This document shows, one piece after another, positions 19,006-42,604 of a stretch of 64,000 nucleotides of DNA. This DNA comes from Halobacteriota archaeon (GTDB lineage: Archaea > Halobacteriota > UBA148), in assembly GCA_042577985.1 (NCBI GenBank), contig JBHPDI010000001.1, forward strand, positions 2,334 through 66,333. The letters are read 5' to 3'. Under the pieces are notes generated by a model, which saw only the letters and a list, made by a program, of their open reading frames with translations, ran no database searches and had not been told where the DNA came from. The first letter of the stretch is position 1; each line of letters starts with the position of its first letter. Made by a program: the position numbers and the translations under genes.

Positions 19006-20427
19006 ATGAAAATAGCATTAGTTAACGTATTGGACGTTCCAGAGGTACCTCCTATGGGACTGGCATATATCGCCACTTATCTAAGAGAATACGGGAGTTT
19101 TGAAAATACTAAAATAATAGATGCAAATGTAGAGAACGTTTGGGATGGAATTAAAATATATAAACCAGATGTCATTGCAATATCTTCCATGACAATTACC
19201 TATAGTACAGCGATAGAATTGGCAAAAAGAATTAAACAAGAGCAGGACGTTCCTTGTATAATTGGCGGCCCTCATATATCCACCTTACCCTCCTCTCTAT
19301 CTAAGGATTTTGATATGGGTGTTATTGGGGAAGGGGAACAAACAATACTTGAACTTATTCAGTTGTATGATAAAGATAAAGAGTTCAGAAAAGAGAAGTT
19401 AAAAGATATAGGGGGACTTGCCTATCACAATAATGGTAAAGTTAGCTTAACTAAAAAAAGGGATTTAATTCAGCCTTTAGATAAAATTCCTATTCCAGAT
19501 AGGAAATTTCTTGATCCGTCATACTTCAACGAAAAAAGAGTTTTTTTTACTGATAGAATTGGACGAGAAGCCCACATGCTCACTCTTAGGGGATGTCCAT
19601 ACCGTTGCATTTTTTGCTCTACTTCGGCGTTATGGCAAAATGTCACTAGGTACCATTCCGTAGAACACATATGTAGTGAAGTGAATGAACTTATTGATAA
19701 ATATAAAGTCAATGCTATCCAGATTTGGGATGATACTTTCACGATAAATAAAAAGAGATTACAAGAGATATCAGAGGCATTCAAAAAGGAGAAGATAAAC
19801 GAAAAAGTAGAATTTTCTTGCCAACCTAGAGCGAACTTAGTTGATGACAACCTATGTGAAATATTAAAAAACATAGGTGTTACTACAGTGAGCTTTGGCT
19901 TCGAGAGCGGAAGTGATAAAGTTCTTAATTATCTAAAAGCAGGATCGGTTACTGTTGAGCAAAATAAAACTGCTATAAAAACATGTAAAAAACACGGTCT
20001 CAATGTGTTTGGAAGCCTTATGTTTGGAAGTCCTGGTGAGACCTTAGAAGATATCAGACAAACATTAGATTTAATTGACTTCATGGGAGATAATTATGTG
20101 GACTTAATATGGGCTTTTATATCAACTCCATTTCCATCGACTGAATTCTGGGAAGTCGCTAAATCGCGGGGTAAAGTAAATGATGAAGAAATGGATTGGA
20201 ACACCCTAAGCCATAGCTATGCGAAAAATCCCTTTTTATTAGATGATTCTGTGGATAGAGCCGAATTTAAAAGGCTTTTTGAGGAAGCCAAACAAAGAAT
20301 CTATGTATCTTTTGAGAGAAAATATTGGCATCATTCCCTAGGCTGGATGCTAAAACAAGGCATAGTCAATCCAAAAAGAGGATTTGAGGTTTTACTAAAG
20401 ATTCTTAAATTAAAAACTAGTTATTAA
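19006..20427 (+). CDS. Cobalamin-binding radical SAM enzyme (class B)
   Basis: 473 aa. Has the N-terminal B12-binding Rossmann fold (IALVNV...DVIAISSMTITY...IIGGPH) and the radical SAM core RGCPYRCIFCS. Confidence 0.75.
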   Translation: MKIALVNVLDVPEVPPMGLAYIATYLREYGSFENTKIIDANVENVWDGIKIYKPDVIAISSMTITYSTAIELAKRIKQEQDVPCIIGGPHISTLPSSLSKDFDMGVIGEGEQTILELIQLYDKDKEFRKEKLKDIGGLAYHNNGKVSLTKKRDLIQPLDKIPIPDRKFLDPSYFNEKRVFFTDRIGREAHMLTLRGCPYRCIFCSTSALWQNVTRYHSVEHICSEVNELIDKYKVNAIQIWDDTFTINKKRLQEISEAFKKEKINEKVEFSCQPRANLVDDNLCEILKNIGVTTVSFGFESGSDKVLNYLKAGSVTVEQNKTAIKTCKKHGLNVFGSLMFGSPGETLEDIRQTLDLIDFMGDNYVDLIWAFISTPFPSTEFWEVAKSRGKVNDEEMDWNTLSHSYAKNPFLLDDSVDRAEFKRLFEEAKQRIYVSFERKYWHHSLGWMLKQGIVNPKRGFEVLLKILKLKTSY

Positions 20428-21633: not shown

Positions 21634-21796
21634 TGATCCCATACATCGGTTGATGATAAGGAAAAACACCAAATTCTATATAAGTTATATCTAAGTTATA
21701 TATTCCATATAAGTTGGATATTACTCTTAGGTATTACCCTACCTCTCAAGTAAAAAAATGTGTTGAAGATGTTTCGATAAAGATGAAGGATATTAA

Positions 21797-22858
21797 ATGA
21801 AGGCACTGATATTATCGGGTGGAAAAGGGACTAGGTTGAGACCTCTCACGTTCACCACTGCAAAGCAATTAGTTCCAATAGCTAATAAACCTGTTCTCGG
21901 TTATGTGCTTGACTGTGTTGCACAAGCAGGTCTCACAGATGTTGGTGTTATCATAGCCCAAGAAACAAAAGAGGATGTTAAGAAGTATGTAGGAGATGGC
22001 TCTGAATGGGGATTCAAGGTGACTTACATTATGCAAGAGCCTTTGGGATTGGCTCACGCCGTTAAAACCGCAAAAGATTTTCTCGGTGATGATGACTTCG
22101 TGATGTACCTTGGAGACAACCTACTTGGTACAAGAATAAATGAGTTAGTGACTAATTTTCAAGAAGAGGGGTTCGATGCTTTAATCTTGCTAAAAGAAGT
22201 GGAGGATCCAAGACTGTTTGGTGTAGCTATTTTAGACGAAAAGGGGAACATTGTTAATCTTATAGAAAAGCCTAAGAAATCGCCTAGCAATTTAGCATTA
22301 GTTGGGGTTTATGTTTTTTCAAATAAGATTCACCAAGCTATAGATAGAATTAAACCTTCATGGCGTGGTGAATTAGAGATAACAGATGCAATTCAAGAGA
22401 TGATAAATTTAGGCTGTAAAGTCAAAGCAGAAATCCTCGAATCATGGTGGTTAGATACCGGAAAGAAGGACGACGTTCTCGATGCTAATGCTTTAGTTTT
22501 AGATGATTTTTGCAAGGGAGACATTAAGGGAAACATAGATGATAAAAGCAAGGTTAGTGGGAGGGTTAGAATCGAAGAGGGGACAAAAATAGTAAACAGT
22601 ATTGTTAGGGGACCTTGTGTAATTGGAAAAGATTGTACAATAGAGAATTCTTTCGTTGGCTCTTATACAAGCATTGGAAATAATTCAAATATTGTGGCAT
22701 CGGCCATAGAGTACTGCATCATAATGGAGAATGTCGAGATAAAAAATATTGATAGGTTGGAAGAAAGCTTGATTGGAAGGAATACAAAAATTTCTAAAAA
22801 CAGAAAACAAAAGGTATTAAAACTTCACATAGGTGATTATTCAGAGGTGGAGATTTAA
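21797..22858 (+). CDS. rmlA: Glucose-1-phosphate thymidylyltransferase-like NDP-sugar pyrophosphorylase (long archaeal form with LbH C-terminus)
   Basis: 353 aa. Has MKALILSGGKGTRLRPLTFTTAKQLVPIANKPVL (RmlA-type G-loop) and a hexapeptide-repeat C-terminus. Confidence 0.7.
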   Translation: MKALILSGGKGTRLRPLTFTTAKQLVPIANKPVLGYVLDCVAQAGLTDVGVIIAQETKEDVKKYVGDGSEWGFKVTYIMQEPLGLAHAVKTAKDFLGDDDFVMYLGDNLLGTRINELVTNFQEEGFDALILLKEVEDPRLFGVAILDEKGNIVNLIEKPKKSPSNLALVGVYVFSNKIHQAIDRIKPSWRGELEITDAIQEMINLGCKVKAEILESWWLDTGKKDDVLDANALVLDDFCKGDIKGNIDDKSKVSGRVRIEEGTKIVNSIVRGPCVIGKDCTIENSFVGSYTSIGNNSNIVASAIEYCIIMENVEIKNIDRLEESLIGRNTKISKNRKQKVLKLHIGDYSEVEI

Positions 22859-22871
22859 GACGGGTGTTAAT

Positions 22872-23741
22872 ATGAAAGTGCTAATAACTGGGAATACGGG
22901 ATTTATAGGGAGTAACATGTTCCGTTTCCTTGAAAGCAAAGAATCCGTAGAACCAATAGGATATTCAGAAAGCACAGGACAGGATATATTCGATTTGGAT
23001 AAGTTAAGAGAATTTGTTAAAAATTGTGATGTCGTTTATCATTTTGCTGCTTACGCTAAGCCGGGTGAGAGTATAACTAATCCTGTTAAAGCGATAGAAA
23101 CTAACGTTAAAGGTTGCTTAAATATTTTAGAGGCATGCAGAGAATATAAAGTTCCACTAATATATCCAAGTAGCTGCGAAATATACGGTAATTCAAAAGA
23201 ACCCATTAAAGAAGAGGCTCCTGTAAAACCACTTAATCCATATGCTGCGAGCAAAGCCTCAGCCGATAGCATTTGTTTTTCGTATTATATAAGTTATGAT
23301 ATGGATATTAAAATTGTGAGATTATTTAATCCCTATGGTCCAAAACAGCAGTTGAATAAAATAATACCCATATTATACTTCCAAGCCATCAATAATGAAG
23401 ATCTTACCGTGTTTGGGGAAGGAAATGATACAAGAGATTATGTATACGTAAAGGATATTATAAGGGGGCTATGGCTAGTAAGAAATTTGCCCGCGGGCGA
23501 AGTAATAAATTTAGCTACTGGGAAAGAAACAACAAATCTTGAAGTTGCTAATTTAATTTTAGAGTTAACAAATAGTGATTCAGAAATATCCTTTATAAAT
23601 TATCCAAAAGAATTTGGAAATATTAAAAATCAAGTTGGGTCATTTGAAAAAGCGAAAAGGCTGTTAGGATGGCATTCGGAAGTAGAGTTAGAAGAAGGTA
23701 TTAAAAAGACTATAAAATGGTTAGAAACAATAAAGGAGTAA
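22872..23741 (+). CDS. NAD-dependent epimerase/dehydratase family SDR
   Basis: Has GNTGFIGS, the YAASK catalytic motif and a C-terminal substrate domain. The start was moved to MKVLITG, which is in frame with the track ORF starting at 22833. Confidence 0.65.
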   Translation: MKVLITGNTGFIGSNMFRFLESKESVEPIGYSESTGQDIFDLDKLREFVKNCDVVYHFAAYAKPGESITNPVKAIETNVKGCLNILEACREYKVPLIYPSSCEIYGNSKEPIKEEAPVKPLNPYAASKASADSICFSYYISYDMDIKIVRLFNPYGPKQQLNKIIPILYFQAINNEDLTVFGEGNDTRDYVYVKDIIRGLWLVRNLPAGEVINLATGKETTNLEVANLILELTNSDSEISFINYPKEFGNIKNQVGSFEKAKRLLGWHSEVELEEGIKKTIKWLETIKE

Positions 23742-23745
23742 AAGG

Positions 23746-25080
23746 ATGGAGACCTACGAAGAACTGGAAAAAATAAAAGAAGAGATTTTTAAGAAAATAG
23801 CAGAATATTATGAAGTTAAGAAGGGGGAAAAGGGGGAATCTGTCCCAAGTTCATACAGAATAAGTTATGCTAAAGCTATTTTTGATGAAAAAGAGGTAAT
23901 TTCAATAACAGACTCTATTTTAAAAGAATGGCTTGGTTTGGGACCAAAGGCGAGAGAATTTACTAAGATGTTCTCGGAATATCTGGGGGTCTCAAAGACG
24001 GTTTTAGTTAATTCAGGCTCATCTGCAAATTTACTTGCACTAACCGCACTAAAATCAAATAAAATTAAAAAACCATTAAATAATGGAGAAGAAGTAATAA
24101 CACCCGCCGTAACATTTCCTACTGTTGTTAACCCAATAATACAGAATGACTTGATTCCAGTAATAGTGGATGCTAACATAGAAACTTATAATATCGATAT
24201 TGAGAGGTTAAAAGAAGCCATTACTCCTAAAACAAGGGCAATTATGTTACCCCATATGTTGGGAAACTCAAATGATATGGACGCTATAATAGATATTGCT
24301 GAAGATCACAAACTTTATTTAATCGAAGATAATTGCGATGCGCTTGGATCTGAGTTTGATGGGAAAAAAACAGGTAGTTTTGGTATTTTATCAACTTGTT
24401 CTTTTTATCCTGCACATCACATCACAATGGGGGAGGGCGGATCTATCTCTATTATCGCAGACGATGCGAATCTATATAGAGTAATAATATCCCTTAGAGA
24501 CTGGGGGAGGGACTGTTGGTGTGAAAGTGATGAGAAATCACCCACTGGTGCTTGTGATAGAAGATTTGAATGGGAGATTGGTGGGACAAAATATGATCAT
24601 CGCTATATATACAGCCATATCGGATATAACTTAAAACCAATAGAAATTCAGGCTGCAATGGGAGTGGAACAGCTCAAGAAGATAGGAGATTTTAACCAGA
24701 AAAGGAGGGATAATTTTCAATATCTATATAATAATTTGAGAAAATATGTGGAATATATATCTTTCATAAAAAAACCAAAGAAAGCTAATCCTGCATGGTT
24801 TGCTTTTCCAATTATGGTAAACGAGAAAGCTCCTTTCTCTAGATACGAAATTACGAAATACTTGGAAGACAAAGGAATACAAACAAGATTACTATTTGCA
24901 GGAGAAATCACTAAACAGCCAGCGTACAAATCAATCCAATTCAAATCTTCTGGGTCTTTAGAAAATTCTGAAAAAGTGATGAAAAATTCTTTTTTCATTG
25001 GAATTCATCCAGGGCTTAACGAATTGCAATTAAAATATATTGTTAAGATTTTTGATAGTTTTATGGAAGGGTTTAGGTAA
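23746..25080 (+). CDS. E1/ColD-like PLP/PMP-dependent NDP-4-keto-6-deoxyhexose 3-dehydrase (DegT/DnrJ/EryC1 fold, His replaces the Schiff-base Lys)
   Basis: 444 aa. The active-site segment is STCSFYPAHHITMGEGG, with H where aminotransferases have K. This substitution defines ColD and E1 (RfbH/DdhC). A Cys cluster (C-x38-C-x-C-x10-C: STCS...DCWCESDEKSPTGAC) resembles the E1 [2Fe-2S] site. Confidence 0.65.
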   Translation: METYEELEKIKEEIFKKIAEYYEVKKGEKGESVPSSYRISYAKAIFDEKEVISITDSILKEWLGLGPKAREFTKMFSEYLGVSKTVLVNSGSSANLLALTALKSNKIKKPLNNGEEVITPAVTFPTVVNPIIQNDLIPVIVDANIETYNIDIERLKEAITPKTRAIMLPHMLGNSNDMDAIIDIAEDHKLYLIEDNCDALGSEFDGKKTGSFGILSTCSFYPAHHITMGEGGSISIIADDANLYRVIISLRDWGRDCWCESDEKSPTGACDRRFEWEIGGTKYDHRYIYSHIGYNLKPIEIQAAMGVEQLKKIGDFNQKRRDNFQYLYNNLRKYVEYISFIKKPKKANPAWFAFPIMVNEKAPFSRYEITKYLEDKGIQTRLLFAGEITKQPAYKSIQFKSSGSLENSEKVMKNSFFIGIHPGLNELQLKYIVKIFDSFMEGFR

Positions 25081-26027
25081 TGAAGATACTAATAACAGGT
25101 GGAGCAGGCTTCATAGGATGTAATTTTGTTCGATATATGCTAAAGAAGTATCCTACTGAAGAGATTTTAGTCTTAGATAAACTAACTTATGCTGGCAGAA
25201 TAGAGAATTTACAAGACGTTATGGATAAAATAAAGTTTATCAAAGGAGATATTTGCAATAAAAAGGATGTTGAGAAAGTAGGGCATTGCGACGCCATATT
25301 CAACTTTGCAGCAGAGACGCATGTTGATCGCTCGATAATAGATGCAGGCATATTTGTAAAAACGGACATTCTTGGTACTTATAATCTATTGGAGCATGCA
25401 AGAAAGCATGATGTTGAAAAATACATCCAAATAAGTACGGATGAAGTATACGGTTCGATAGAAAAGGACTCTTTTAAAGAAAGTGACATATTAGATCCAT
25501 CTTCTCCTTACTCAGCGAGCAAAGCGGGAGCGGATTTGTTAGTTAAGGCATACTACAAGACTTATGGCGTGCAAGCATTAATAACTCGCAGTTCAAACAA
25601 CTTTGGTCCCTATCAGTATCCAGAGAAGCTAATTCCTGTTCTCATTATCAATGCCTTGTATGATAAACCGTTACCAATTTATGGGGAAGGTAAAAACATA
25701 AGAGATTGGATTTATGTTATGGATAATTGTGAAGCGATAGATTTAGTATTTCAAAAAGGAAAGATGATGGAGACGTATAACATCGGTGCTGGAAATGAAA
25801 AAACGAATATAGAAATTGTAAACTTAATATTGGGGGAAATGAAAAAACCGAAGAGTTTAATAGAATTTGTAATGGATAGGCCGGGGCATGATTTTAGATA
25901 CTCTTTAAATTGCGAGAAAATAAAAAGATTAGGATGGGAGCCTAAGGTAAAGTTTGAGGAAGGGATTGAGAAAACTATTAATTGGTATGCTGAAAATAGA
26001 GGATGGTGGGAAACATTGTTGAAGTAA
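25080..26027 (+). CDS. rmlB: dTDP-glucose 4,6-dehydratase-like (RmlB-type SDR)
   Basis: 315 aa. [59 protein letters not shown] and most other blocks match RmlB. Confidence 0.8.
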   Translation: MKILITGGAGFIGCNFVRYMLKKYPTEEILVLDKLTYAGRIENLQDVMDKIKFIKGDICNKKDVEKVGHCDAIFNFAAETHVDRSIIDAGIFVKTDILGTYNLLEHARKHDVEKYIQISTDEVYGSIEKDSFKESDILDPSSPYSASKAGADLLVKAYYKTYGVQALITRSSNNFGPYQYPEKLIPVLIINALYDKPLPIYGEGKNIRDWIYVMDNCEAIDLVFQKGKMMETYNIGAGNEKTNIEIVNLILGEMKKPKSLIEFVMDRPGHDFRYSLNCEKIKRLGWEPKVKFEEGIEKTINWYAENRGWWETLLK

Positions 26028-26029
26028 CA

Positions 26030-27007
26030 ATGGGTGATAAGTATCCAGGAATCAGTGTCGTAATACCGGCATACAATGGTGAGAAGACAATTGGCAAAAC
26101 GATAGAATCTATTTTGAATCAGAAATATGAAGGAGAAATTGAAATAATTATTGTGAATGACTGTTCAACCGATGGTACCTTAGAAGTTGTTCAGCAGTAT
26201 CCAACAAAGATAATAAATAATGATACGAATTTGGGATTGGCTTATTCTGTAAATAAAGGTGTAAAAGCCTCAAAGAATGATATTGTTTCCGTGATTCATG
26301 AAGATATACTATTGATTGACAAAGAATGGGTCAAGAAATTAGTCCCTTATCTCAAGGAAGGAGTTGCAGTAGTTTCTTCACCTGTAATGTTACCAAGGGA
26401 AATCTATGACACATTTGGTTTCTGGGAGATGGTTTTATTCTCATGGGATTTGAAAGAAGATTATGAAAAAACTGTGGAAATTTTCACAGATGGGTATAAT
26501 GAATTCAAAAACGTCATTTTCAAGAAAGATATTTTCCTAAAGTTTGGAGGATTAGATGGAAATATATACCGGGCAGCTTGTGAGGATGTGGATTTGAGTA
26601 TGAAATTGTTTAAGGCAGGTTATAATATGGTCTCAGTTCCAATCCCAGTTTATCATCTTCATTCTTCTCGTGCAGCTAATCTTTCAAAGATATTATTTGA
26701 ATACCGACCTCGATTATCAGAAGGACAAGGCGTTTTGTTCAGAAAATACGGATTTAGATCATGGGACATAAATAATCAAAATTTCAAAACTATTGCGATT
26801 ATAGCTCTTTTTGTTCCCTTCAACATAATTCGAATAGTCGGAGCACTTTTCATCCTTGCAATAATTTTTGGAAATACGATAAGAGCATTTAAGGTTATGA
26901 AAAATCTAAAAGTTTTTATATTAGTTCCTCTAGTAAAAATTTTAGATTATTTCTTAGAAGTAATTTACTTCTGGAAAGGTTTCCTAACAGGTAGGCAGAG
27001 GAAATGA
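26030..27007 (+). CDS. Glycosyltransferase family 2 with C-terminal membrane segment
   Basis: Has ISVVIPAYNGEKTIGKTIESILNQ...VNDCSTDGT (GT-A DxD context). The start was moved to MGDKY, in frame with the track ORF starting at 26003. Confidence 0.7.
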   Translation: MGDKYPGISVVIPAYNGEKTIGKTIESILNQKYEGEIEIIIVNDCSTDGTLEVVQQYPTKIINNDTNLGLAYSVNKGVKASKNDIVSVIHEDILLIDKEWVKKLVPYLKEGVAVVSSPVMLPREIYDTFGFWEMVLFSWDLKEDYEKTVEIFTDGYNEFKNVIFKKDIFLKFGGLDGNIYRAACEDVDLSMKLFKAGYNMVSVPIPVYHLHSSRAANLSKILFEYRPRLSEGQGVLFRKYGFRSWDINNQNFKTIAIIALFVPFNIIRIVGALFILAIIFGNTIRAFKVMKNLKVFILVPLVKILDYFLEVIYFWKGFLTGRQRK

Positions 27008-27873
27008 AAATAATAATTACAATCCCAGCATATAATGAAGAAGAGAGTATTAGTTATGTGATTAGCGGTATTAAAAAAACGATGGATCAAACTGAATACG
27101 AGTATAAGATAATTGTTGTCAATGATGGTTCGACAGATAACACAGCTAATATCGCAAAAAGTTCTGGGGCATTAGTTTATTCACATCCATATAATTATGG
27201 TCTAGCTGAAACTTTTAGAACTGAAATAGAAAAAGCTTTAGAGGGCAATGCGGAGATAATTGTCCATATAGATGCGGATGGACAATATAGGCCAGAGGAA
27301 ATTCATGAATTGATAAAACCCCTAGAAAATAAAGAAGCTGATTTGGTATTAGGCTCAAGGTTTGCCGGGGTTATTGAAAAAATGCCATTTGTTAAAAAAT
27401 TAGGCAATATTGCTTTTTCAAAAGTAGTTTCTCAAATAAGTGGAATAAAAGTGACAGATGCGCAGACAGGGTTCAGGGCATTTACAAGAGAGATCGCTGA
27501 AAAAATCGAGATTATTTCTACACATACATATACGCAAGAACAGATAATAAAAACAGTTAGAAATAAGTTCAAAGTAAAAGAAGTTCCGATTTATTTCGAA
27601 AAAAGGAAGTCAGGTACGAGCAGATTGATGTCGAATCCAGTTGATTTTGCAATTAAGGCATGGATTAATTTATTGAGAATATATAGGGATTTTGAACCTC
27701 TAAAGTTCTTTGGAGTAGTGGGGTTTGTTTTAATATTCACTGCTATATTAACTTTTTTTTGTAGTATATTCTTCTTGAGGGAACTTTTAGATATAACAGT
27801 TATAGTTCTTATTTTAGCCGGAATTCAGATTATATTATTTGGTTTTTTAGCAGAGATGGTGAAAAAAAGGTGA
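27004..27873 (+). CDS. GT2 polyprenyl-phosphate hexose synthase-like (DPM1/GtrB/AglJ-like) with C-terminal TM helices
   Basis: 289 aa. Has IIITIPAYNEEESI...VVNDGSTDNT...DADGQY and two C-terminal TM helices. Confidence 0.7.
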   Translation: MKIIITIPAYNEEESISYVISGIKKTMDQTEYEYKIIVVNDGSTDNTANIAKSSGALVYSHPYNYGLAETFRTEIEKALEGNAEIIVHIDADGQYRPEEIHELIKPLENKEADLVLGSRFAGVIEKMPFVKKLGNIAFSKVVSQISGIKVTDAQTGFRAFTREIAEKIEIISTHTYTQEQIIKTVRNKFKVKEVPIYFEKRKSGTSRLMSNPVDFAIKAWINLLRIYRDFEPLKFFGVVGFVLIFTAILTFFCSIFFLRELLDITVIVLILAGIQIILFGFLAEMVKKR

Positions 27874-29135
27874 CAAATGACAAAGAGGTGCACAATTTTA
27901 AGGATTTAGATCCAGAACTCTGTACCTTTTGTGGCACGTGCGTAGGTGTATGTCCTCAAAATTCATTAATCGCTAAACACGGAAAAATTTATTCGGTAGG
28001 CAAATGTAAATCTTGTGGACTTTGTTATAATGCCTGTCCTGGTAGAGAAGTTGCCTTCTCTAAATTAAATTCACATATTTTTAAATCTTCACAAAGAGAT
28101 AGATATGTCGGTGTTTACAAATCATTATATGTGGGACATTCAAGAGATGTAAAAATAAGAAATAATGCATCTTCTGGAGGTGTCGTAACATCATTATTAA
28201 TTTTTTTATTGGACAAAGGTCTAATTGATGGAGCTATCGTTGTTTGCATGAAATATAAAGAACCATGGAATTACGAAGTAAAAATTGCGAGAACAAAAAA
28301 AGATATTTTGAAAGCTTCACAATCTAAATACTCTTTAGTTCCTCTAAATGCTATTTTAAGTAAAATAAGGAAAGAAGATGGTAATTTTGCCCTTGTGGGT
28401 TTACCTTGCCATATCCATGGTATTAGAAGTCTTCAAATGATGGGGTGGGAACACAGTGATAAGATTAAATATTTAATTGGTCTATTTTGTGGTTTTAATA
28501 TGCATTTATCCGCAACAAATCATCTTATCAATAAATTAGGAGTTGAAAAAGGAGATATACTAAGTCTCCAATATAGGGGGGGCAATTATCCAGGTGGTTT
28601 CCTTATAAAAACAAAAAATAATAATGAAAAATCTCTTGAGAAGTTTTATTATAATCTATTAAACCTAATGTATGTTCCTAAGAGGTGTCTACTTTGTGTG
28701 GACCTTATGAATGAACTTGCTGATATCTCGGTAGGTGATGCGTGGATTAAAGATATTGATAAAGATGGATGGTCAACAGTTATAGTTAGAACAGAAAAAG
28801 GAGAAACCTTGTTTAAGGATGCCATAAAACACAATTATTTGGGCTATAAAAAAATTTCAAGAGAAGATCTTTTAAAATCACATTCACATTTAATAAGATA
28901 CAAAAAAATAAAAGTTTTTATCAGATTATATTTAAGCAAGAAAAAACCGATATATGATTTGGAGTATCCTAATATGAAGATACATGAATATATACCGGGC
29001 GCTCTATTCTTTTATTCAGTTAAAATTCTGGGCAATGATTATATTAAAAAAGTTATAGGTTTTTTGCCACTAAAATTATTTGGGATTATAGCACATTTAG
29101 GCAAATACATAATAAGAAAGGGAGAGCTAGAATGA
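27870..29135 (+). CDS. FrhB/FdhB-like protein (coenzyme F420 hydrogenase/dehydrogenase beta-subunit family) with N-terminal 2x[4Fe-4S] ferredoxin domain
   Basis: 421 aa. Has CTFCGTCVGVCP and CKSCGLCYNACP ferredoxin motifs followed by an FrhB-like FAD/F420 domain. Confidence 0.6.
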   Translation: MTNDKEVHNFKDLDPELCTFCGTCVGVCPQNSLIAKHGKIYSVGKCKSCGLCYNACPGREVAFSKLNSHIFKSSQRDRYVGVYKSLYVGHSRDVKIRNNASSGGVVTSLLIFLLDKGLIDGAIVVCMKYKEPWNYEVKIARTKKDILKASQSKYSLVPLNAILSKIRKEDGNFALVGLPCHIHGIRSLQMMGWEHSDKIKYLIGLFCGFNMHLSATNHLINKLGVEKGDILSLQYRGGNYPGGFLIKTKNNNEKSLEKFYYNLLNLMYVPKRCLLCVDLMNELADISVGDAWIKDIDKDGWSTVIVRTEKGETLFKDAIKHNYLGYKKISREDLLKSHSHLIRYKKIKVFIRLYLSKKKPIYDLEYPNMKIHEYIPGALFFYSVKILGNDYIKKVIGFLPLKLFGIIAHLGKYIIRKGELE

Positions 29136-30763
29136 GCGAAAATAGCTATCGAACTTATGTTTTAAATAATATGCCACGCCTGATAAGTCAGCTTGACCGG
29201 GACAAAAATTCTCTGACATATGGCTGTTTCGACAGAAACTATTGGCATTATAAGATAAGAGACTTTCCTTCAATAATTCTTCAACAAGGTTCTTTAGCTT
29301 TAGCCTTACTTTATTCAAATAACTTCAAAGGAAATATTTATTATAAGAACAAAAAAATTGAGGAATGGACTTTAGCATCCCTCTATTTTTGGATGGAAAA
29401 CCAATTAAAGGACGGTTCTTTTAATGAGTATTGGCCAAATGAGCACGGATATCCTCCAACGGTATTTTCTTTATATACCACCTCGGAGACATATAGGCTA
29501 TTGCATGCTTTTATTGACAAAAAAGACGGCTTAGAAAGGGCCTTAATTAAATCGTGCAACTTTATCTCTAAACATGATGAAAAGGGAGCACAGAACCAGG
29601 AAATAGCTTCTATTACCTCGTTATATAGTGTGTATTTATCAATCAAAGAAAAATGGTTATTAAATATTATTGATGAAAAAGTGAAGCAAATCCTCAAAAG
29701 GCAATCACATGAAGGATGGATCTCTGAATACGGTGGTGCAGATATTGGGTATCTGAGTGTATCACTGGGTTATCTCGCTGAGTATTATAAAATGAGTCAA
29801 GATAAAAGAGTATTTCCTGCTCTAAAAAGTATTGTAGATTTTATGCAGTTCTTTATACATCCTGATTCTACCTCTGGGGGGGATTATGGGAGTAGAAATA
29901 CTGAATACTTTCTTCCAAACGGTTTAGAGATTTTAGCAGCAGATTATTCGTTGGCAGGTGCTATAGCTGATAAATTATTAAATAATTTAGAAAAATATCA
30001 AACTCTTCCTAACACAGTAGACGAGAGATATCTTTCTCATTATTTCTTACATTCTTATGTTGGTGCACTACTTAATTATAAACCCAGAAGAGATATCCCA
30101 AAGCTTCCGTGCGAGATAAAATGTGAGAAATATTTTAAAGATGCGGGTTTATATGTTCTAAATAATGGAAATTATTATGCTATTTTAGGATTATCAAAAG
30201 GCGGAGTTTTAAAAGTTTTTTCGCAAGGAAAAGAAATTCTAAATGACTGTGGTTATATGGCAAAAATCTCTAAAAATAAACTCATTACAACTAATTGGGT
30301 TGATCAGAGTTATATAAAAGAAAAGAAAGGGAATACTTTTATCGTTTCTGGTGATTTCCACTCGATATCACAATATTTACCCACCCCTTTAAAGCATTTC
30401 TTGCTGAGAGGTGCGTCGAGTATATTTGGTAAGCGACTTATACCTATTTTGAAAAAGCGACTAATAACTAGAGATATAAAAGTGCCAACTACTTTTAAAA
30501 GAACGGTGACTTTTCATGGTAAAAGAATAATTATCGATGATATTATTACTTCTGAAAACGTATTAAAAGAAGTTTCTACATCCGATGGTTTTTCTTTCCG
30601 ATATGTTCCATCATCTAAATATTTTCAAATTAACGAAATTAAGAGAATAAATATAGATAAAATTTTCCAAAATATTAGGAAAATTGAAATCAAAAAGGAG
30701 GTAGACTGCATAAATGGAAAAGTCTTTATTGCAAATGAAAATCACAAGAAAAGAAATTCATAA
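29132..30763 (+). CDS. Hypothetical protein, no motif recognised (possibly polysaccharide-modifying)
   Basis: 543 aa soluble ORF, translationally coupled to the FrhB-like gene (4-nt overlap). Confidence 0.4.
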   Translation: MSENSYRTYVLNNMPRLISQLDRDKNSLTYGCFDRNYWHYKIRDFPSIILQQGSLALALLYSNNFKGNIYYKNKKIEEWTLASLYFWMENQLKDGSFNEYWPNEHGYPPTVFSLYTTSETYRLLHAFIDKKDGLERALIKSCNFISKHDEKGAQNQEIASITSLYSVYLSIKEKWLLNIIDEKVKQILKRQSHEGWISEYGGADIGYLSVSLGYLAEYYKMSQDKRVFPALKSIVDFMQFFIHPDSTSGGDYGSRNTEYFLPNGLEILAADYSLAGAIADKLLNNLEKYQTLPNTVDERYLSHYFLHSYVGALLNYKPRRDIPKLPCEIKCEKYFKDAGLYVLNNGNYYAILGLSKGGVLKVFSQGKEILNDCGYMAKISKNKLITTNWVDQSYIKEKKGNTFIVSGDFHSISQYLPTPLKHFLLRGASSIFGKRLIPILKKRLITRDIKVPTTFKRTVTFHGKRIIIDDIITSENVLKEVSTSDGFSFRYVPSSKYFQINEIKRINIDKIFQNIRKIEIKKEVDCINGKVFIANENHKKRNS

Positions 30764-30821: not shown

Positions 30822-32354
30822 ATGTCAGATATTATACTAATCCAACCGAAGGCAGGGGTTTATGAGATAACTAGTATCAGGATGCCCTTGCCATGTTTGT
30901 CGATTGCCGCCCTCCCGGATCGAGATGGCTATAATGTAAAAATTATAGACCAAAGAACAGATAAAAATTGGCAATCAAACCTTATCAGTTCTCTTAAATC
31001 GAAACCCATTTGTGTTGGTGTGACCAGCATGACAGGCCCACAGATTGGGTTTGCTCTGGAAGTATCCAAGTGTATTAAGGATAACTCAGATGTTCCTGTG
31101 GTGTGGGGTGGAGTCCATCCTTCTCTGTTACCTGAACAAACACTGGAAAACGAAAATATAGATATAGTTGTGGTGGGGGAAGGCGAAGCCACTTTTTTTG
31201 AGTTAGTTGCTGCATTGGAAAAAGAAAAGCCTCTGGAAGATGTGAAAGGAATATGGTATAAACAGGATGGCAAAATTAAAAGAACTCCTCCAAGACCATT
31301 TATGGATTTGAACGCCCTCCCTGATATGCCCTATCATCTTGTAGATGTGCATAAATATTCTGCCTTTGATCTAAGCGGAACAGGAGAACAGGCCCTTTCG
31401 GTTATGACCAGTCGGGGCTGTCCATATGGTTGCAGCTTTTGTTATAATACGGTTTTTAATAAACGTAAATGGAGAGCCTTAACGGTAGAGAACTCATTAA
31501 AACGGATAAAAAATGTTGTGGACAGTTTTGGAGTTAAGTCGATTTACTTCCCTGAGGATAATTTTTCATTCGATCTTAAGAGATTTGAAGGGATTATCAA
31601 AGGAATTATAGATGAAGGGCTGGACATAACTTGGGGTTCTCAGGGGATCAGGATGGACTCTGTTGGGAAGATGAGCCATGAACTTCTATCACTAGCTGAG
31701 AAAAGCGGCTGCAAGAATCTGGATATTGGTATCGAATCAGGATCACCGAGAATCCTGAAACTAATAAAGAAAGGAGCAACTGTTGATCAGATTGTAGCAG
31801 GGGGTAAAAAACTTTCCGAGCATGATTTTATAGTAAAATATAATTTTATGATGGGGATTCCAACAGAGACAAAAGAGGAAAGGAAAGAGTCGTTGGACCT
31901 TGGCTCAAAGTTAATCAAAGAGAATAAGAACGCATATATGCTGTTTCATATTTATACACCATTTCCTCAGACTGAACTCTATAAGTTGGCATTAGAAAGC
32001 GGTTTTAAATCTCCGTCCACACTCGAAACATGGGCGAAGTTCAACTATCTCGACTGGACATATAATTACGATTCGTGGTTATCCGATAAAGACATAAAAA
32101 TTTTAGGCAATTTGTCTTTCATATCTCGCCTTGCTAACAGGAATATAAGGTATAAAATTACAAACACATTTATTAAAACAATGTTTGACTTGTATTATCC
32201 GATAGCCAAGTTTAGGCTCGATCACAATTTCTATTATTTGTTTATCGAAAAAGCAGTGGAAAAGAGTATGAGACCGGTATTACTCAAATATATGTCACAA
32301 ATTGGTAAAAAATATACGAATGAACCTTCAGACATTTCCGCTAGAGATGGTTAG
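30822..32354 (+). CDS. Cobalamin-binding radical SAM enzyme (class B), second copy
   Basis: 510 aa. Has a B12-binding N-terminus (ILIQPK...VGVTSMTGPQI...VVWGGVHPS) and the radical SAM core SRGCPYGCSFCYN. Confidence 0.75.
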   Translation: MSDIILIQPKAGVYEITSIRMPLPCLSIAALPDRDGYNVKIIDQRTDKNWQSNLISSLKSKPICVGVTSMTGPQIGFALEVSKCIKDNSDVPVVWGGVHPSLLPEQTLENENIDIVVVGEGEATFFELVAALEKEKPLEDVKGIWYKQDGKIKRTPPRPFMDLNALPDMPYHLVDVHKYSAFDLSGTGEQALSVMTSRGCPYGCSFCYNTVFNKRKWRALTVENSLKRIKNVVDSFGVKSIYFPEDNFSFDLKRFEGIIKGIIDEGLDITWGSQGIRMDSVGKMSHELLSLAEKSGCKNLDIGIESGSPRILKLIKKGATVDQIVAGGKKLSEHDFIVKYNFMMGIPTETKEERKESLDLGSKLIKENKNAYMLFHIYTPFPQTELYKLALESGFKSPSTLETWAKFNYLDWTYNYDSWLSDKDIKILGNLSFISRLANRNIRYKITNTFIKTMFDLYYPIAKFRLDHNFYYLFIEKAVEKSMRPVLLKYMSQIGKKYTNEPSDISARDG

Positions 32355-32433: not shown

Positions 32434-33354
32434 TTATTCCTGCGATTTCATCTTCCACATAAATGGAATCCCAATCAATGATACCAGCCAATACCTAACA
32501 ATAGAAAATAAGATGCCAACACCCAACAATTTTTCTGGTGCAGCAAACCCTGAGAAAAGAAAAATAATGGCCGCATCACGAGTACCCATACCGCCCAGTG
32601 TAACTGGAATCAATCCAATGAAAATTGCAATTGGGATATTAGCCATTGTGAAGAACAAGGGAACGTTAATTCTCAATGCATAGAAAAATATTAGGGTTTG
32701 TAATATTGATATACTCCAAATTAAAAGAGAATAAGAGAGAATAATCGAAAATACTCTTTTATCTTTCGTTAGTAATTTCGTAGAAAGAATCAGGTTTTGA
32801 ATTTTTTCATTCCATGAACTCTTTATCGGCAAGCGGAAATTAAAACCAGCGTGTGCAAGAAGAAATATTGCAATTATGAAAATGAAGATGCTTAACGCAA
32901 TAAAAGCTAACTCATATTTCTTACAAAACGTCATGCCAATTAAAGAAAACAAAACAAGTGTAAGAAAATCAAACATTCTCTCGGTTATTACGCTGCCAAC
33001 TGTTTTACTTGCTGGAATCTTATTTTTTAAATAATATGCCTTGATAACATCTCCTGACTTGGAAGGAGTAATCGAAGTTAAAGGAAGAGCAGCCATTATC
33101 AAGTTAAGGCATTCTTTGTATGGTAATTTATAGCCCATTATTTCTAAGATTATTTGCCATCGTTTTGCAATGATAGGTATGATCAAAAATAACAATAAAA
33201 GCGCAATAAGCAGATAAAAGAGATTAGCGTGCGATAATACATCCATAACCGAATAAAAATCTATTTTTGTGAAGATGAAGTAGAAAATGGCTATTGTGAT
33301 GGCTAATACAATAACCGATTTCAATACTGAACTGCTGCTCCTTTTCAATGTCAC
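32434..33354 (-). CDS. Flippase-like domain membrane protein (UPF0104 / LPG-synthase-TM-like)
   Basis: 306 aa with ~8 TM helices and the conserved RW...P.RSGD-type loop (IAKRWQIILE...TPSKSGDVIKAY). Confidence 0.55.
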   Translation of the reverse strand: MTLKRSSSSVLKSVIVLAITIAIFYFIFTKIDFYSVMDVLSHANLFYLLIALLLLFLIIPIIAKRWQIILEIMGYKLPYKECLNLIMAALPLTSITPSKSGDVIKAYYLKNKIPASKTVGSVITERMFDFLTLVLFSLIGMTFCKKYELAFIALSIFIFIIAIFLLAHAGFNFRLPIKSSWNEKIQNLILSTKLLTKDKRVFSIILSYSLLIWSISILQTLIFFYALRINVPLFFTMANIPIAIFIGLIPVTLGGMGTRDAAIIFLFSGFAAPEKLLGVGILFSIVRYWLVSLIGIPFMWKMKSQE

Positions 33355-38957: not shown

Positions 38958-39611
38958 TCACTTGACATTGCCCTTTTCCCAATCATTAAGAAATTGTCTT
39001 ATTCCAATATCTGTCAGAGGGTGTACAATCATTTTTTCAATAACATTAAAAGGAATAGTGGCAACATGTGCACCAGCTTTTGCTGCCTCTATCACATGCA
39101 ATGGATGTCGAATGCTCGCAACGATGACCTCAGTTTTTATATTGTAGTTATTGAAAATCGTTATAATCTCCCTTACCAAGTTCATTCCTTCATGACCTAT
39201 ATCATCTAACCGTCCAATGAATGGACTGACATAACTGGCACCCGACTTAGCGGCAAGCAATGCTTGATTCGCTGAGAAGATTAACGTCATATTCACTTTA
39301 ATATTTTCCATGTTTAATATTTTCGTGGCTTTTAACCCTTCTTTGGTTATGGGAATCTTTACAATAATATTTGGTGCCAATTTTGATAATTTCCTTGCCT
39401 CTTCGACCATCTCCTCTGTCCTTAAACTAATAACTTCAGCACTAATCGGTCCATTCACGATGCTACAAATATCCTTTAGCAGTTCCTGAAAATCCATCTC
39501 TTCTCTGGCTATTAGGGTTGGGTTAGTTGTCACTCCATCAAGTATCCCTAAACCATTAGCCTTCTTTATCTCTTCGATATTCGCAGTGTCAATAAAAAAT
39601 TTCATTTCCAA
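38958..39611 (-). CDS. tal: Transaldolase / fructose-6-phosphate aldolase (short TalC/Fsa type)
   Basis: 217 aa. Has [12 protein letters not shown]...GVTTNP...KIP, the characteristic Schiff-base Lys context. Confidence 0.8.
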
Positions 39612-40198
39612 TCACTATCCTCTAAAATCCATTTAGCAGCGGCATACAAATCGGAAGCGGTATAATCTATATTTTCATTTTTTTTCACGCTTTGAACACG
39701 CCCAGTTAGAACTAATATCGTTTTACAACCCATTTTAATCCCAGGTACTAGGTCTGTCATCTTATCCCCTATTACGTAAGATTCTTTTAAGTCAATATCC
39801 AAATCATGCGCTGCTTGCTTTAACATACCTGGATTTGGCTTTCTGCAATAACAACCAACATCTGGATGATGTGGACAATAATATATAGCATCTAAAAATG
39901 CTCCTTCTTTAGATAATTCCTTTTCCATCTTTTGATGAATATTTATCAGCATTTCTTCGGTAAAATATCCACGCACAACACCGGCTTGATTTGTAAAAAC
40001 TACAACCTTTAAACCAGCATTATTCAATAATTTAATTGCTTCCCCCACTCCTGATATAAGTTTAAACTCATTTGGATGACGAGGAGCAAACTGATTAGAC
40101 TCTGGATGAACTACTTCTTCATTGGTCGTCCCGTCCCTATCCAAGAATACTGCTCTATTCATTATCACCACCAAAAAGCTCTTTTTCAACAATGTCAC
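39602..40198 (-). CDS. gmhB: D-glycero-D-manno-heptose 1,7-bisphosphate phosphatase (HAD-IIIA, GmhB)
   Basis: [10 protein letters not shown] (HAD motif I) and VVFTNQAG, plus a Cys-rich Zn motif (CYCRKPNPG) typical of GmhB. The probable true start is MNRAVF at 40162. Confidence 0.7.
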
Positions 40199-40724
40199 AA
40201 ATAATATGCCCTATCGTAATGTGTGCCTCTTGAATTCTAGGAGTGTTGCTCGATGGAACCTTTATGCATAGATCAACAACTTTAGCAAGTTCACCTCTTC
40301 TACCAATAAAACCAATTGTTATTGCACCTTTTTCTTTGGCAGTTCTTATACCTTTTATAACATTTGGGGAACTACCGCTGGTGCTGATACCTATAACAAT
40401 GTCGCCACGCTCAACCAGTGCTTCGACTTGTCTTGAAAAAACATTATTATATCCATAGTCGTTTCCAATGGCTGTTAGAATGGATGTATTAGTAGTGAGT
40501 GCGATTGCTGGCAATCCCTTTCTTTCCAACATAAACTTGCTAACTAGCTCACACGCTATATGTTGAGCATCTGCTGCACTTCCACCGTTCCCAAATAAAA
40601 CAACTTTTTTTCCATTTTCATAAGCTTTAATAATCCTCTCACATATTTTCTCTATTTCAGCGCTTTGTTCACGAAGTTCCATTTTAATTCTTGCACCCTC
40701 CTCTAACATCTCACTTATCTTCAT
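40155..40724 (-). CDS. gmhA: Sedoheptulose-7-phosphate isomerase (SIS domain, GmhA)
   Basis: Has KVVLFGNGGSAADAQH...GISTSGSSPNVI. The start was trimmed to MKISEM; the track ORF extends to 40772. Confidence 0.8.
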   Translation of the reverse strand: MKISEMLEEGARIKMELREQSAEIEKICERIIKAYENGKKVVLFGNGGSAADAQHIACELVSKFMLERKGLPAIALTTNTSILTAIGNDYGYNNVFSRQVEALVERGDIVIGISTSGSSPNVIKGIRTAKEKGAITIGFIGRRGELAKVVDLCIKVPSSNTPRIQEAHITIGHIICDIVEKELFGGDNE

Positions 40725-41727
40725 CTCCAACCTTCCATATTTGTAATCCTTTTGTTTCAAATCCAAAATCAATTATCTTCACACCATATTCTTTGATTTT
40801 ATCTTCCACTTTGTACTTCTTGTCGTACTCGCAGAAGAGCAAAAGATGTCCTCCCCCTCCTGCACCAAGTATCTTTCCGCCAATTGCTCCGTTCTCTCTT
40901 GCAATTTCATATAGCTTGTCTATTTCAGGGTTAGTTATTTTATTTGATAGCCTTTTCTTTTCTATCCATCCTTGATGTAAAAGCTCACCAAATCTCCTAA
41001 GATTACCTTTAATCAGAGAATATTTCATTTCATCGGCAATACTCTTCAGATTATGCATTCCTTCTATCGAGTCTTTTTTTCTTTCTTTATATCTTTTTAC
41101 CAGATCAACTTGAATTTCACTCGACAGTCTTGTATCACCTGTATAACAGAGCAACAAGCGATATTGGAGTTCGTTTAAATTTTCAGAACGGAGTCGCAAC
41201 GGATTTACAATGACTTCATCCTTAAATTCGATATAGTTAAGTCCTCCAAATGTGGAAGCGTATTGATCCTGATATCCTCCTTCCATCTTTAACTCTTCTC
41301 TCTCTATATGATATGCGAGTTCTGCGACTTCGTATCCCTCCATGCAAATCTCAAGGAATTCTTTGAAAGCCCCTATCAAAGCCACTGTAACTGCAGATGA
41401 GATGCCCATTCCAGAGCCAGGCGGCATATCGCTATGTATTAATAAATCACATCCTTTATCAACACTAAACTCGTTTATTATTGCTTTTACTATGTCTAAT
41501 CTGCCATTGTATTCCAGTTCTTCTCCAATTTCAAAGCTTTTTTTTAATCTATAATCCAATGAATATATGTTAATTGCTTTATTTTTATTCGGTGTAATGG
41601 TGGCGTATGCATATTTATTTATGGTAGTGCTGATCACTGCGCCGCCATGTTCTCGACAGTAAGGTGGCACATCAGTTCCTCCACCTCCAAAACTGATCCG
41701 AAAAGGGGATCTACTCCTTATGACCAT
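40711..41727 (-). CDS. hddA: D-glycero-alpha-D-manno-heptose 7-phosphate kinase (GHMP kinase, HddA-type)
   Basis: 338 aa. Has RSPFRISFGGGGTD (GHMP N-terminal motif), PPGSGMGSSA (ATP loop), and gene context consistent with the heptose pathway. Confidence 0.7.
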   Translation of the reverse strand: MVIRSRSPFRISFGGGGTDVPPYCREHGGAVISTTINKYAYATITPNKNKAINIYSLDYRLKKSFEIGEELEYNGRLDIVKAIINEFSVDKGCDLLIHSDMPPGSGMGISSAVTVALIGAFKEFLEICMEGYEVAELAYHIEREELKMEGGYQDQYASTFGGLNYIEFKDEVIVNPLRLRSENLNELQYRLLLCYTGDTRLSSEIQVDLVKRYKERKKDSIEGMHNLKSIADEMKYSLIKGNLRRFGELLHQGWIEKKRLSNKITNPEIDKLYEIARENGAIGGKILGAGGGGHLLLFCEYDKKYKVEDKIKEYGVKIIDFGFETKGLQIWKVGDEDK

Positions 41728-42449
41728 ATTAGCTCCTCCAGCTCTTTTTTGATCCTCTCATAGTCTTCTGGTGTGCCCAAGTCTCGAAAGTAACAATTCG
41801 TTTTATATCCAAATATGCGATTTGTTTCCACTATCTTTGGAAAAAGGTCATATTCAATAGAAAATACCTCTTTGGCAGGCATATAACTGTATATGTCTAA
41901 GTCAAAGACATAAGCACCCGTGTTAATACTTCCAAAGTTTTTTTCACTTTTTTCTATAAATTTCGTAATTATGCAATGTTCATTAATTTCGACTGCTCCG
42001 TATCTATGGTTTTCTTCATTTATGTTAGCCAGTGATATTGTTGCTAAACCCTTTTTTTCTTCATGAAAACTCAAAAAATCAGTGAAATCTGTGAGGAGAT
42101 AAGTATCTCCATTCATAACCATGAATTTATCTTCATTAACAACATAGGATTCCGCGTTTTTTAGAGCCCCGCCAGTTCCCAAAGGTTTTTCCTCCTCCAC
42201 ATATTCAATGTGTACCTCAAACTTTTTCCCATTTCCAAAGTAATTCTTGATTTCATTACTCATATACCCAACAGAAAGAATAATGTCTCTTAGATTGAAC
42301 CTCTTTAGCAATTCGATTTGCCATTCCAAAAAGGGCTTTCCACATATTTGAGCCATAGGCTTTGGCTTATCACTAATAATTTTCCGAAGCCTTGTTCCAA
42401 GTCCACCAGCCAAGATTATTGTTTTCATAATAAGCCTATTTTTTTTCAA
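41718..42449 (-). CDS. hddC: D-glycero-alpha-D-manno-heptose 1-phosphate guanylyltransferase (HddC-type NTP transferase)
   Basis: 243 aa. Has IILAGGLGTRLR...KPKPM, and gene context consistent with the heptose pathway. Confidence 0.7.
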   Translation of the reverse strand: MKKNRLIMKTIILAGGLGTRLRKIISDKPKPMAQICGKPFLEWQIELLKRFNLRDIILSVGYMSNEIKNYFGNGKKFEVHIEYVEEEKPLGTGGALKNAESYVVNEDKFMVMNGDTYLLTDFTDFLSFHEEKKGLATISLANINEENHRYGAVEINEHCIITKFIEKSEKNFGSINTGAYVFDLDIYSYMPAKEVFSIEYDLFPKIVETNRIFGYKTNCYFRDLGTPEDYERIKKELEELIWS

Positions 42450-42604
42450 TTATGCTTTTTCAGTAGTTCCAAAATACCCCTCTTCCGAGTACGATTATAT
42501 ACTATACTTTCATGTCGGTTTGGCGGATTGTTTATGTGAGGATTGTGAATAAGCGGTAGAATGGATTGGAAAATCGTGTTCGAAACTCGGTGAATCAGGA
42601 AGTA

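Follow-up and report, generated by a model that had tools for sequence, protein, structure and literature searches.

The window analyzed here, a stretch of 64,000 nucleotides from contig JBHPDI010000001.1 of a Halobacteriota archaeon, carries four adjacent plus-strand genes (21797-26027) that include one for a protein of the E1/RfbH type, i.e. a predicted 3-dehydrase of nucleotide-linked 4-keto-6-deoxyhexoses. These genes probably constitute a self-contained cassette for a deoxythymidine diphosphate (dTDP)-linked 3,6-dideoxyhexose that would draw its electrons from housekeeping donors, and the module that follows, with its FrhB-like flavo/iron-sulfur (Fe-S) protein, would be independent of it. 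The first features of the window are an archaeal 23S rRNA, of which it contains the 3' part, a tRNA and the 5S rRNA, and the archaeal type of its large-subunit rRNA, 5S rRNA and RNase P RNA bears out the archaeal host named in an earlier reading of this DNA made from its letters only (the sequence-only reading). The open reading frames (ORFs) listed in that reading all exist where it had placed them. From about 12 to 61 kb, the window is a single large glycan-biosynthesis island, in which the plus-strand genes between 21797 and 30763 are tightly packed, several start and stop codons overlapping.

The E1-like protein belongs to the E1/RfbH family by every sequence criterion applied. It scores 549.4 bits with the NCBIfam model NF011936 (RfbH), for a cut-off of 423, matches the DegT fold (PF01041) at E=5e-89, and aligns over its full length with Yersinia pseudotuberculosis E1 (PDB 3bcx) at E=3e-114 and about 45% identity. 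These matches are far beyond chance, and the protein scores 385 bits against E1 and 200 bits against ColD. An identical protein is auto-annotated at the NCBI as 'lipopolysaccharide biosynthesis protein RfbH [Halobacteriota archaeon]'. The motif SFYPAHHITMGEGG is common to the window protein and to Yersinia E1, letter for letter. In the HMMER and MAFFT alignments its first His (AHH) is aligned with E1 H220, which occupies the position of the Schiff-base Lys that binds pyridoxal 5'-phosphate (PLP) and is the residue altered in the deposited H220K mutant structure 3bb8. The substitution of His for the PLP-binding Lys, proposed in the sequence-only reading, is thus confirmed by alignment with both Yersinia E1 and ColD, no Lys being found at the Schiff-base position. 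The window provides an internal control: an ordinary DegT aminotransferase, encoded on the minus strand, has a Lys at this place (SFYANKIITTGEGG) and is devoid of the Cys loop.

The second hallmark of the family is a set of cysteines predicted to hold a [2Fe-2S] cluster, which the sequence-only reading had also suspected. The window protein has a Cys at the positions of E1 C193, C251, C253 and C261, so that all four ligands align. The E1 cluster motif, in the form quoted by a later review, is C-X57-C-X1-C-X7-C (Agnihotri et al. 2004, cited in PMC8987622); in the window protein, a three-residue insertion in the loop lengthens its final spacer from X7 to X10, and the non-ligand cysteines C192 and C257 of E1 are absent. 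Each of the 198 E1-type sequences aligned (197 homologs and Yersinia E1) keeps H220 and all four Cys, whereas ColD, added to the alignment, lacks three of the four Cys (the equivalents of C251, C253 and C261). This strict conservation of the predicted ligands argues for a functional redox cluster.

The nucleotidyltransferase, the short-chain dehydrogenase/reductase (SDR) and the 4,6-dehydratase that the sequence-only reading had placed around the E1-like gene are all present (Table 1). The closest solved structures of the long-form nucleotidyltransferase (RmlA-long) are all dTDP-glucose synthases. The dehydratase (RmlB), whose start overlaps the E1 stop codon by 1 nt, contains the STDEVYG motif and matches PDB 6bi4 and 2hun at E~1e-106, its nearest solved relatives being likewise all dTDP enzymes. 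The classical 3,6-dideoxyhexose pathway proceeds instead through cytidine diphosphate (CDP)-sugars made by RfbF and RfbG, and that of colitose through guanosine diphosphate (GDP)-sugars. RfbF and RfbG are missing from the window, in which no protein corresponds to TIGR02623 (cytidylyltransferase) or TIGR02622 (CDP-glucose 4,6-dehydratase), and the only other 4,6-dehydratase of the window is the GDP-mannose 4,6-dehydratase Gmd, which is separated from the cassette by 28 kb, is read from the opposite strand and belongs to another gene group. The family models and the gene context thus suggest that the flanking genes are of the dTDP type. Of the bacterial gene logic of abequose, tyvelose and colitose synthesis invoked earlier, the E1-type 3-dehydrase stands, and its partners prove to be RmlA-long and RmlB rather than the CDP- or GDP-type enzymes. 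Two other assignments were considered for these genes. The use by the E1-like enzyme of GDP-4-keto-6-deoxymannose supplied by Gmd was rejected on account of the other strand and gene group of Gmd and of a protein that is not of the ColD type; a role of RmlA and RmlB in rhamnose synthesis was rejected because neither RmlC nor RmlD was found in a Pfam scan of the window ORFs.

The SDR matches PF01370 and PF16363 and no NCBIfam equivalog. Its mechanically defined ORF (22833-23741) begins with a GTG at 22833, and the real start is probably the ATG at 22872, which gives a protein of 289 residues, the length of its orthologs. The YxxxK motif is present (YAASK), and the sequence SSCEIYG is found where RmlB reads STDEVYG. 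The protein therefore lacks the Asp of the TDE triad, a residue needed for 4,6-dehydration, and is a putative 4-ketoreductase that would complete the sugar. The gene that follows RmlB encodes a family 2 glycosyltransferase (GT2), a tentative candidate for the transfer of the cassette product. Indeed, a GT2 gene also follows the cassette in several related loci (L081, L084-87 and L094), with a similarity to the window gene so low (43-48 bits) that orthology is not clear.

Table 1. Position, strand and supporting matches of the genes discussed in the text (window coordinates, unless a related locus is named; PMP, pyridoxamine 5'-phosphate; NDP, nucleoside diphosphate; UDP, uridine diphosphate; SAM, S-adenosylmethionine).
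Feature	Coordinates	Strand	Family or evidence
RmlA-long, first cassette gene: glucose-1-phosphate thymidylyltransferase, long form, predicted to make dTDP-glucose	21797-22858	+	TIGR01208 equivalog, 489 bits (cut-off 320)
Extended SDR, 289 residues: predicted NAD(P)H-dependent 4-ketoreductase of the 3-deoxygenated product	22872-23741	+	PF01370, PF16363
E1/RfbH-type PMP- and [2Fe-2S]-dependent NDP-4-keto-6-deoxyhexose 3-dehydrase (predicted)	23746-25080	+	NF011936, 3bcx, His/Cys residues
RmlB: dTDP-glucose 4,6-dehydratase, predicted supplier of 4-keto-6-deoxyglucose	25080-26027	+	TIGR01181, 459 bits (cut-off 365)
GT2 glycosyltransferase	26003-27007	+	PF00535
Module gene 1: GT2 with C-terminal membrane segment (AglJ/dolichyl-phosphate hexose synthase-like)	27004-27873	+	TIGR04182, 142 bits; NF041391, 110 bits (both under cut-off)
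Module gene 2: FrhB-family flavo/Fe-S protein, N-terminal 2x[4Fe-4S]	27870-29135	+	PF04422, PF04432 (FrhB_FdhB_N/C), Fer4
Module gene 3: 543-residue 'hypothetical' protein, uronate polysaccharide lyase/dermatan-sulfate epimerase fold	29132-30763	+	
Module gene 4: LPG_synthase_TM (flippase-like) membrane protein	32434-33354	-	PF03706, 162 bits
B12-radical SAM enzymes	19006-20427; 30822-32354		
Ordinary DegT aminotransferase	49880-51061	-	Lys at the Schiff-base position
Gmd: GDP-mannose 4,6-dehydratase	52752-53801	-	TIGR01472, 419.5 bits (cut-off 415)
Oligosaccharyltransferase AglB, in the glycan island	57789-60464		
Further contents of the glycan island: nucleotidyltransferases, UDP-glucose 6-dehydrogenase, Wzx-like flippase, many GT2 and GT4 genes, two B12-radical SAM genes, a heptose-type gene group and a Gmd/C-methyltransferase/DegT group			
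SDR-E1 fusion genes in related loci	L019:2553-4823; L021:554-2782; L053:8975-11308; L067:3897-6146		

The conservation of this arrangement was examined in 91 other E1 loci (designated by L numbers), over up to 10 kb on either side where the contig allows. In 11 of them, the E1 protein is at least 58% identical to that of the window; they comprise environmental contigs (78-85%), MSBL1 and two metagenome-assembled genomes (MAGs), one of Halobacteriota and one of Thermoplasmatales. As far as their contigs extend over the flanks, these loci keep the set of RmlA-long (352-359 residues), SDR (about 290 residues), E1 and RmlB. The MSBL1 locus L095 shows a cassette broken by a transposase, the SDR lying about 4 kb downstream of E1 on the other strand. 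The SDR ortholog is found immediately upstream of E1 in the intact loci of the cassette clade and in the sister-group locus L176, which retains the SDR-E1 pair in the absence of RmlA-long and RmlB; of the cassette genes, that of the SDR is therefore the one most closely tied to E1. In a neighbor-joining tree rooted on ColD, the proteins found in the cassette context fall within one clade of 43 sequences, which leaves out Yersinia E1 and all 80 proteins from a CDP context. The cassette thus marks, as judged from this tree, a monophyletic and largely archaeal E1 subfamily, whose members are 58-100% identical to the window protein.

The remaining 80 loci (43-50% identity, from GTDB genomes) are distributed over many bacterial phyla as well as Methanoregula, Methanobacteriaceae and Helarchaeota. 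In roughly half of these loci, E1 is accompanied by a short nucleotidyltransferase of about 256 residues; those sampled pass TIGR02623, and the adjoining dehydratases find their best match in CDP-glucose 4,6-dehydratase. Among the neighbors of E1, the recurrent families are SDRs, short nucleotidyltransferases, GT2s, an acetolactate-synthase-like thiamine pyrophosphate (TPP) enzyme of about 600 residues resembling YerE, and a protein of about 154 residues. The YerE-like enzyme accompanies E1 in 23 CDP-type loci (e.g. L029:8185-9981), including those of Methanoregula (L004, L007, L010) and Methanobacterium (L022, L058), which suggests a common occurrence of branched-chain 3,6-dideoxy sugars of the yersiniose type among environmental bacteria and some methanogens. 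In several bacterial MAGs, the E1 homolog is fused at its N-terminus to an SDR of about 300 residues, RmlD-like by eye (Table 1), again with no E3 gene. These fusions point to a tight coupling of dehydrase and ketoreductase.

The locus can be compared with several known systems. It shares with the E1 (AscC/DdhC/RfbH) and E3 (AscD/DdhD) system of Yersinia and Salmonella the enzyme family, the motif with the catalytic His and the four Cys ligands, and with their CDP pathway the predicted 4-keto-6-deoxy-D-glucose skeleton and the later reduction by an SDR. It differs in its RmlA-long and RmlB partners, which replace RfbF and RfbG, in the lack of an E3 gene both in the window and in any related locus, in the longer last spacer of the Cys motif, and in the separate, largely archaeal clade of its E1-like protein. 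A second likeness, drawn from a review, is to SpnQ (UrdQ/LanQ-type), the dTDP-4-keto-2,6-dideoxyglucose 3-dehydrase of actinomycete antibiotic pathways, an E1 homolog that has the His and the [2Fe-2S] motif and acts on a dTDP-sugar supplied by RmlA/RmlB-type enzymes (PMC8987622). The substrate of SpnQ is, however, already 2-deoxygenated. The window contains no 3-ketoreductase and, among its non-spurious ORFs of at least 150 residues, no NDP-hexose 2,3-dehydratase (Hexose_dehydrat, PF03559), and the product would therefore be a 3,6-dideoxy rather than a 2,3,6-trideoxy sugar. The destination differs as well, a secondary metabolite for SpnQ and presumably a cell-surface glycan here. ColD, the GDP-4-keto-6-deoxymannose 3-dehydratase of colitose synthesis, has in common with the window protein the DegT fold, the PMP cofactor and the replacement of Lys by His; it differs by its incomplete Cys set, its independence from any reductase and its GDP-sugar substrate.

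On the basis of these elements, the following pathway can be proposed. RmlA-long would produce dTDP-glucose, which RmlB would convert into dTDP-4-keto-6-deoxy-D-glucose. The E1-type enzyme, with PMP, its catalytic His and a [2Fe-2S] cluster on the four Cys, would then remove the C3 hydroxyl via a PMP-glucoseen intermediate, two single electrons reaching this intermediate through the cluster. The SDR of about 290 residues would finally reduce the 4-keto group to yield a dTDP-3,6-dideoxyhexose, whichever its configuration at C4 (and C5), and glycosyltransferases of the AglB-linked island would use the sugar. The presence in the window of AglB, of a Wzx-like flippase and of many glycosyltransferases is the context for this predicted destination.

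Several points weigh against such a reading of the cassette. The functions are deduced from sequence and context. The predicted nucleotide specificity comes from family models and from the neighboring genes, and promiscuity is possible in enzymes of the RmlA-long type. The SDR, which has no equivalog assignment, might instead be an epimerase or catalyze a different step, and the nearby B12-radical SAM enzymes could modify the sugar further. The resemblance to SpnQ is drawn from its description in a review. Only 64 kb of the genome are visible, and an E3-like or other dedicated reductase could lie elsewhere. Finally, the cassette and the FrhB-like module, with their overlapping start and stop codons, are probably carried by one transcript, and an opportunistic transfer of electrons from the FrhB-like protein to E1 is possible, unsupported as it is by any result.

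The alternative that survives best concerns the product and is compatible with the proposed cassette. The 4-keto-3,6-dideoxy sugar, or its reduced form, might be an intermediate that is later C-methylated or branched, for example by a B12-radical SAM enzyme, so that the final glycan residue would not be a plain 3,6-dideoxyhexose, a view we regard as rather unlikely. B12-radical SAM enzymes, which may C-methylate the deoxysugar, are encoded twice in the window, near the cassette in L081 and L092, and directly downstream of E1 in L029 (11302-12822), L034 (7676-9184) and L040 (10167-11720); the YerE-like TPP enzymes of the CDP-type loci described above speak in the same direction. These genes remain, however, outside the conserved four-gene core, and they are absent from L084-87, L093 and L094.

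The other alternatives concern the electron supply of the E1-like enzyme. The lack of a classical E3, noticed in the sequence-only reading, is confirmed for the window: a Pfam scan of its non-spurious ORFs of at least 150 residues found no E3-like protein with Fer2, FAD_binding_6 and NAD_binding_1 domains. This lack is nevertheless not special to the locus. Indeed, none of the 91 other E1 loci, bacterial or archaeal, contains an ORF combining plant-type 2Fe-2S and ferredoxin-NADP reductase (FNR) motifs, in a screen that relied on sequence motifs instead of hidden Markov models, had no positive control and is therefore weaker than the Pfam scan of the window. In the same loci, the plant-type 2Fe-2S motif alone occurs in no plausible protein; the families recurring near E1 include no FNR-like one, and the nine cassette-clade loci checked have no small ferredoxin near the cassette. 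The classical E1 does require E3 (PMC8987622). The earlier claim that an E1-type enzyme needs this flavoprotein cannot be generalized, however, as SpnQ receives its electrons from ferredoxin/ferredoxin-reductase or flavodoxin/flavodoxin-reductase pairs with no specific E3 (PMC8987622). In view of this example and of the 91 loci, the absence of E3 is both common and precedented, and by analogy with SpnQ the most likely electron source is a housekeeping ferredoxin or flavodoxin system. Low-potential ferredoxin is abundant in anaerobic archaea.

A dedicated reductase encoded elsewhere in the genome, either AscD/E3-like or an FNR-type [2Fe-2S] flavoprotein (e.g. PyrK- or NfnA-like), appears improbable. 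The visible sequence is a single contig and the requirement of classical E1 for E3 would favor such an enzyme, but a dedicated partner should show some linkage to E1, as is the case in Yersinia and Salmonella, whereas no E3-like gene is found within up to 10 kb of E1 in 91 loci covering many phyla, and SpnQ functions with no dedicated reductase at all. It is more improbable still that no external reductant is involved, the enzyme acting either like ColD, where the enamine is hydrolyzed and glutamate restores PMP, or as a 4-aminotransferase. The His substitution is indeed common to ColD, and SpnQ acts as an aminotransferase when no reductase is supplied (PMC8987622); the four cluster ligands, missing in ColD and kept in every E1-type sequence aligned, and the much higher score of the window protein against E1 than against ColD nevertheless speak against this possibility.

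Least credible of all is the proposal, made in the sequence-only reading, that the FrhB-like protein together with F420H2 is a dedicated substitute for E3 in the reduction of the E1 cluster: this protein is the only one in the window with ferredoxin-type Cys motifs, its gene lies 2.8 kb downstream of E1 on the same strand and in the same tightly packed string, and the FrhB family (FrhB, FpoF and related proteins) is established to carry FAD and Fe-S clusters, but FrhB-like genes occur in 0 of the 91 other E1 loci (nine cassette-clade loci included, over distances of up to 10 kb) and E1-type genes in 0 of 84 FrhB-like loci. The latter were gathered in part by an alignment-based search of metagenomes, and their best matches to E1 are ordinary DegT proteins with at most 161 bits. 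Searches by phmmer with the window proteins retrieved no homolog of the FrhB-like or of the 543-residue protein in 87 E1 loci, and no FrhB domain is listed in the Pfam matches of one sister-group locus and of four additional loci from the cassette clade. Close homologs of the FrhB-like protein are encountered in Geosporobacter, Omnitrophota and Anaerolineae. To our knowledge, Firmicutes do not make F420 and these three lineages do not use it. Taken with the lack of co-occurrence, such homologs make a dedicated route from F420H2 to E1 unlikely.

The conserved neighbors of the FrhB-like protein show instead that it belongs to a separate module, which only in this genome lies next to the E1 cassette. 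Its scores are far under the cut-offs of the FrhB/FpoF equivalogs (TIGR03289, 134 bits vs 331.5; NF040616, 90 bits vs 475), and its neighbors are all glycan-synthesis genes, no association with FrhA/G or Fpo subunits being seen. In its closest relatives (at least about 41% identity), the gene comes directly after an orthologous GT2 and beside a homolog of the 543-residue protein and an LPG_synthase_TM gene. The GT2 ortholog is directly upstream in L089, L090 and L096 (380-400 bits); the gene of about 540 residues adjoins the FrhB-like gene in L088-L091, L096, L097, L110, L140 and L156, and lies within 5 kb of it, on the opposite strand, in L104; LPG_synthase_TM recurs beside the pair in L088-L091, L104 and L110. 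The whole set is seen in Methanocalculus, in other archaeal contigs and in the Firmicute Geosporobacter ferrireducens. The window protein shares with the FrhB proteins of polysaccharide loci the FrhB_FdhB_N/C and 2x[4Fe-4S] architecture and a glycan cluster setting; these proteins, however, usually stand beside a pyruvyl transferase, whereas its closest clade is accompanied by the GT2, the 540-residue lyase/epimerase-fold protein and LPG_synthase_TM. Indeed, distant relatives lie beside a polysaccharide pyruvyl transferase (PF04230) in 42 of the 84 loci. FrhB-like genes immediately upstream of PF04230 are found in L111-L175, e.g. L159:9288-10589. This pairing is widespread, and we know of no established function for it.

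The third protein of the module, annotated 'hypothetical' everywhere, has no Pfam or NCBIfam match and, as read from its sequence, neither signal peptide nor membrane segment. Its AlphaFold2 model, built from 59 homologs with a pLDDT of 93, shows an alpha/alpha toroid followed by a beta-sandwich. A Foldseek comparison of this model with the PDB retrieved a PL33 hyaluronan lyase (E=1e-9) and lyases of families PL8, PL12, PL15 and PL17, the matches including chondroitinases, heparinase III, alginate lyases and human dermatan-sulfate epimerase 1. Genes for UDP-glucose 6-dehydrogenase are found close by, both here and in two of the related loci. Speculatively, the protein might act in the cytoplasm as an epimerase or eliminase, removing the C5 proton of a hexuronate, and work with a flavin/Fe-S reductase on a lipid-linked sugar. 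The four-gene module may modify a lipid-linked hexuronate. No described function was found for the combination of GT2, FrhB-like, 540-residue and flippase-like genes, and this second, uncharacterized module, now set apart from the cassette, merits a study of its own.

Concerning the cassette, the view that 3,6-dideoxyhexoses are uncharacterized in archaeal glycans agrees with literature word searches, which returned no report of these sugars or of E1 homologs in archaeal glycans, and nothing relevant for RfbH or 3-dehydrase combined with archaeal or methanogen terms. We also know of no description of a dTDP-3,6-dideoxyhexose as a nucleotide sugar. The 3,6-dideoxyhexoses have been placed in a rare group of sugars, most of which are absent from Archaea (PMC7725333). 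What is new with respect to the classical pathway is the predicted dTDP nucleotide and the lack of E3, and with respect to SpnQ-type pathways the lack of 2-deoxygenation genes. Taken together, these elements might tentatively describe a largely archaeal, E3-independent and ferredoxin-driven dTDP-3,6-dideoxyhexose route into AglB-dependent surface glycans. If this is true, a class of sugars considered until now to be rare and limited to a few O-antigens of Gram-negative bacteria, of the Salmonella and Yersinia type, would extend to the AglB-dependent surface glycans of archaea (Halobacteriota, Thermoplasmatales, MSBL1), with dTDP-glucose as starting point, and surveys demanding the full CDP/E1/E3 set may overlook such loci. 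In view of the absence of E3 from all 91 other E1 loci, the E1-E3 pair of the textbooks may be the exception, most enzymes of the E1 type using general low-potential carriers; this is a directly testable point about radical PMP chemistry. Current understanding is not overturned, given that the enzyme is already auto-annotated as RfbH and that its homologs are widespread.

A few additional features of the window can be mentioned. The cassette transcription unit probably has its promoter region in an A/T-rich stretch with three copies of ATATAAGTT (21676-21720), which precedes the start of RmlA-long by about 80-120 nt; a scan for sigma-70 promoters and terminators gave counts no higher than in shuffled sequence, the sigma-70 model being uninformative for an archaeal host. 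The tRNA located between the 23S and 5S rRNA genes (1721-1842) probably contains an intron, as it spans 122 nt for a model of 71 positions. A 33-bp tandem repeat (9129-9257; 3.9 copies, 96% match) encodes an 11-residue protein repeat inside a Toprim-domain (DnaG-like) protein (8324-9586). Within the glycan island, a group of minus-strand genes (38958-45412) encoding a transaldolase/FSA, a HAD phosphatase, a SIS isomerase, a GHMP kinase, an HddC-like nucleotidyltransferase, the split N and C halves of a transketolase and a PfkB kinase looks like a GDP-heptose-type pathway supplied from the pentose-phosphate pathway. Another minus-strand group (49880-53801), which combines Gmd, a sugar C-methyltransferase (PF08421/PF08484) and the Lys-containing DegT aminotransferase, is a second deoxysugar branch, with a C-methylated amino-6-deoxyhexose as its probable product.

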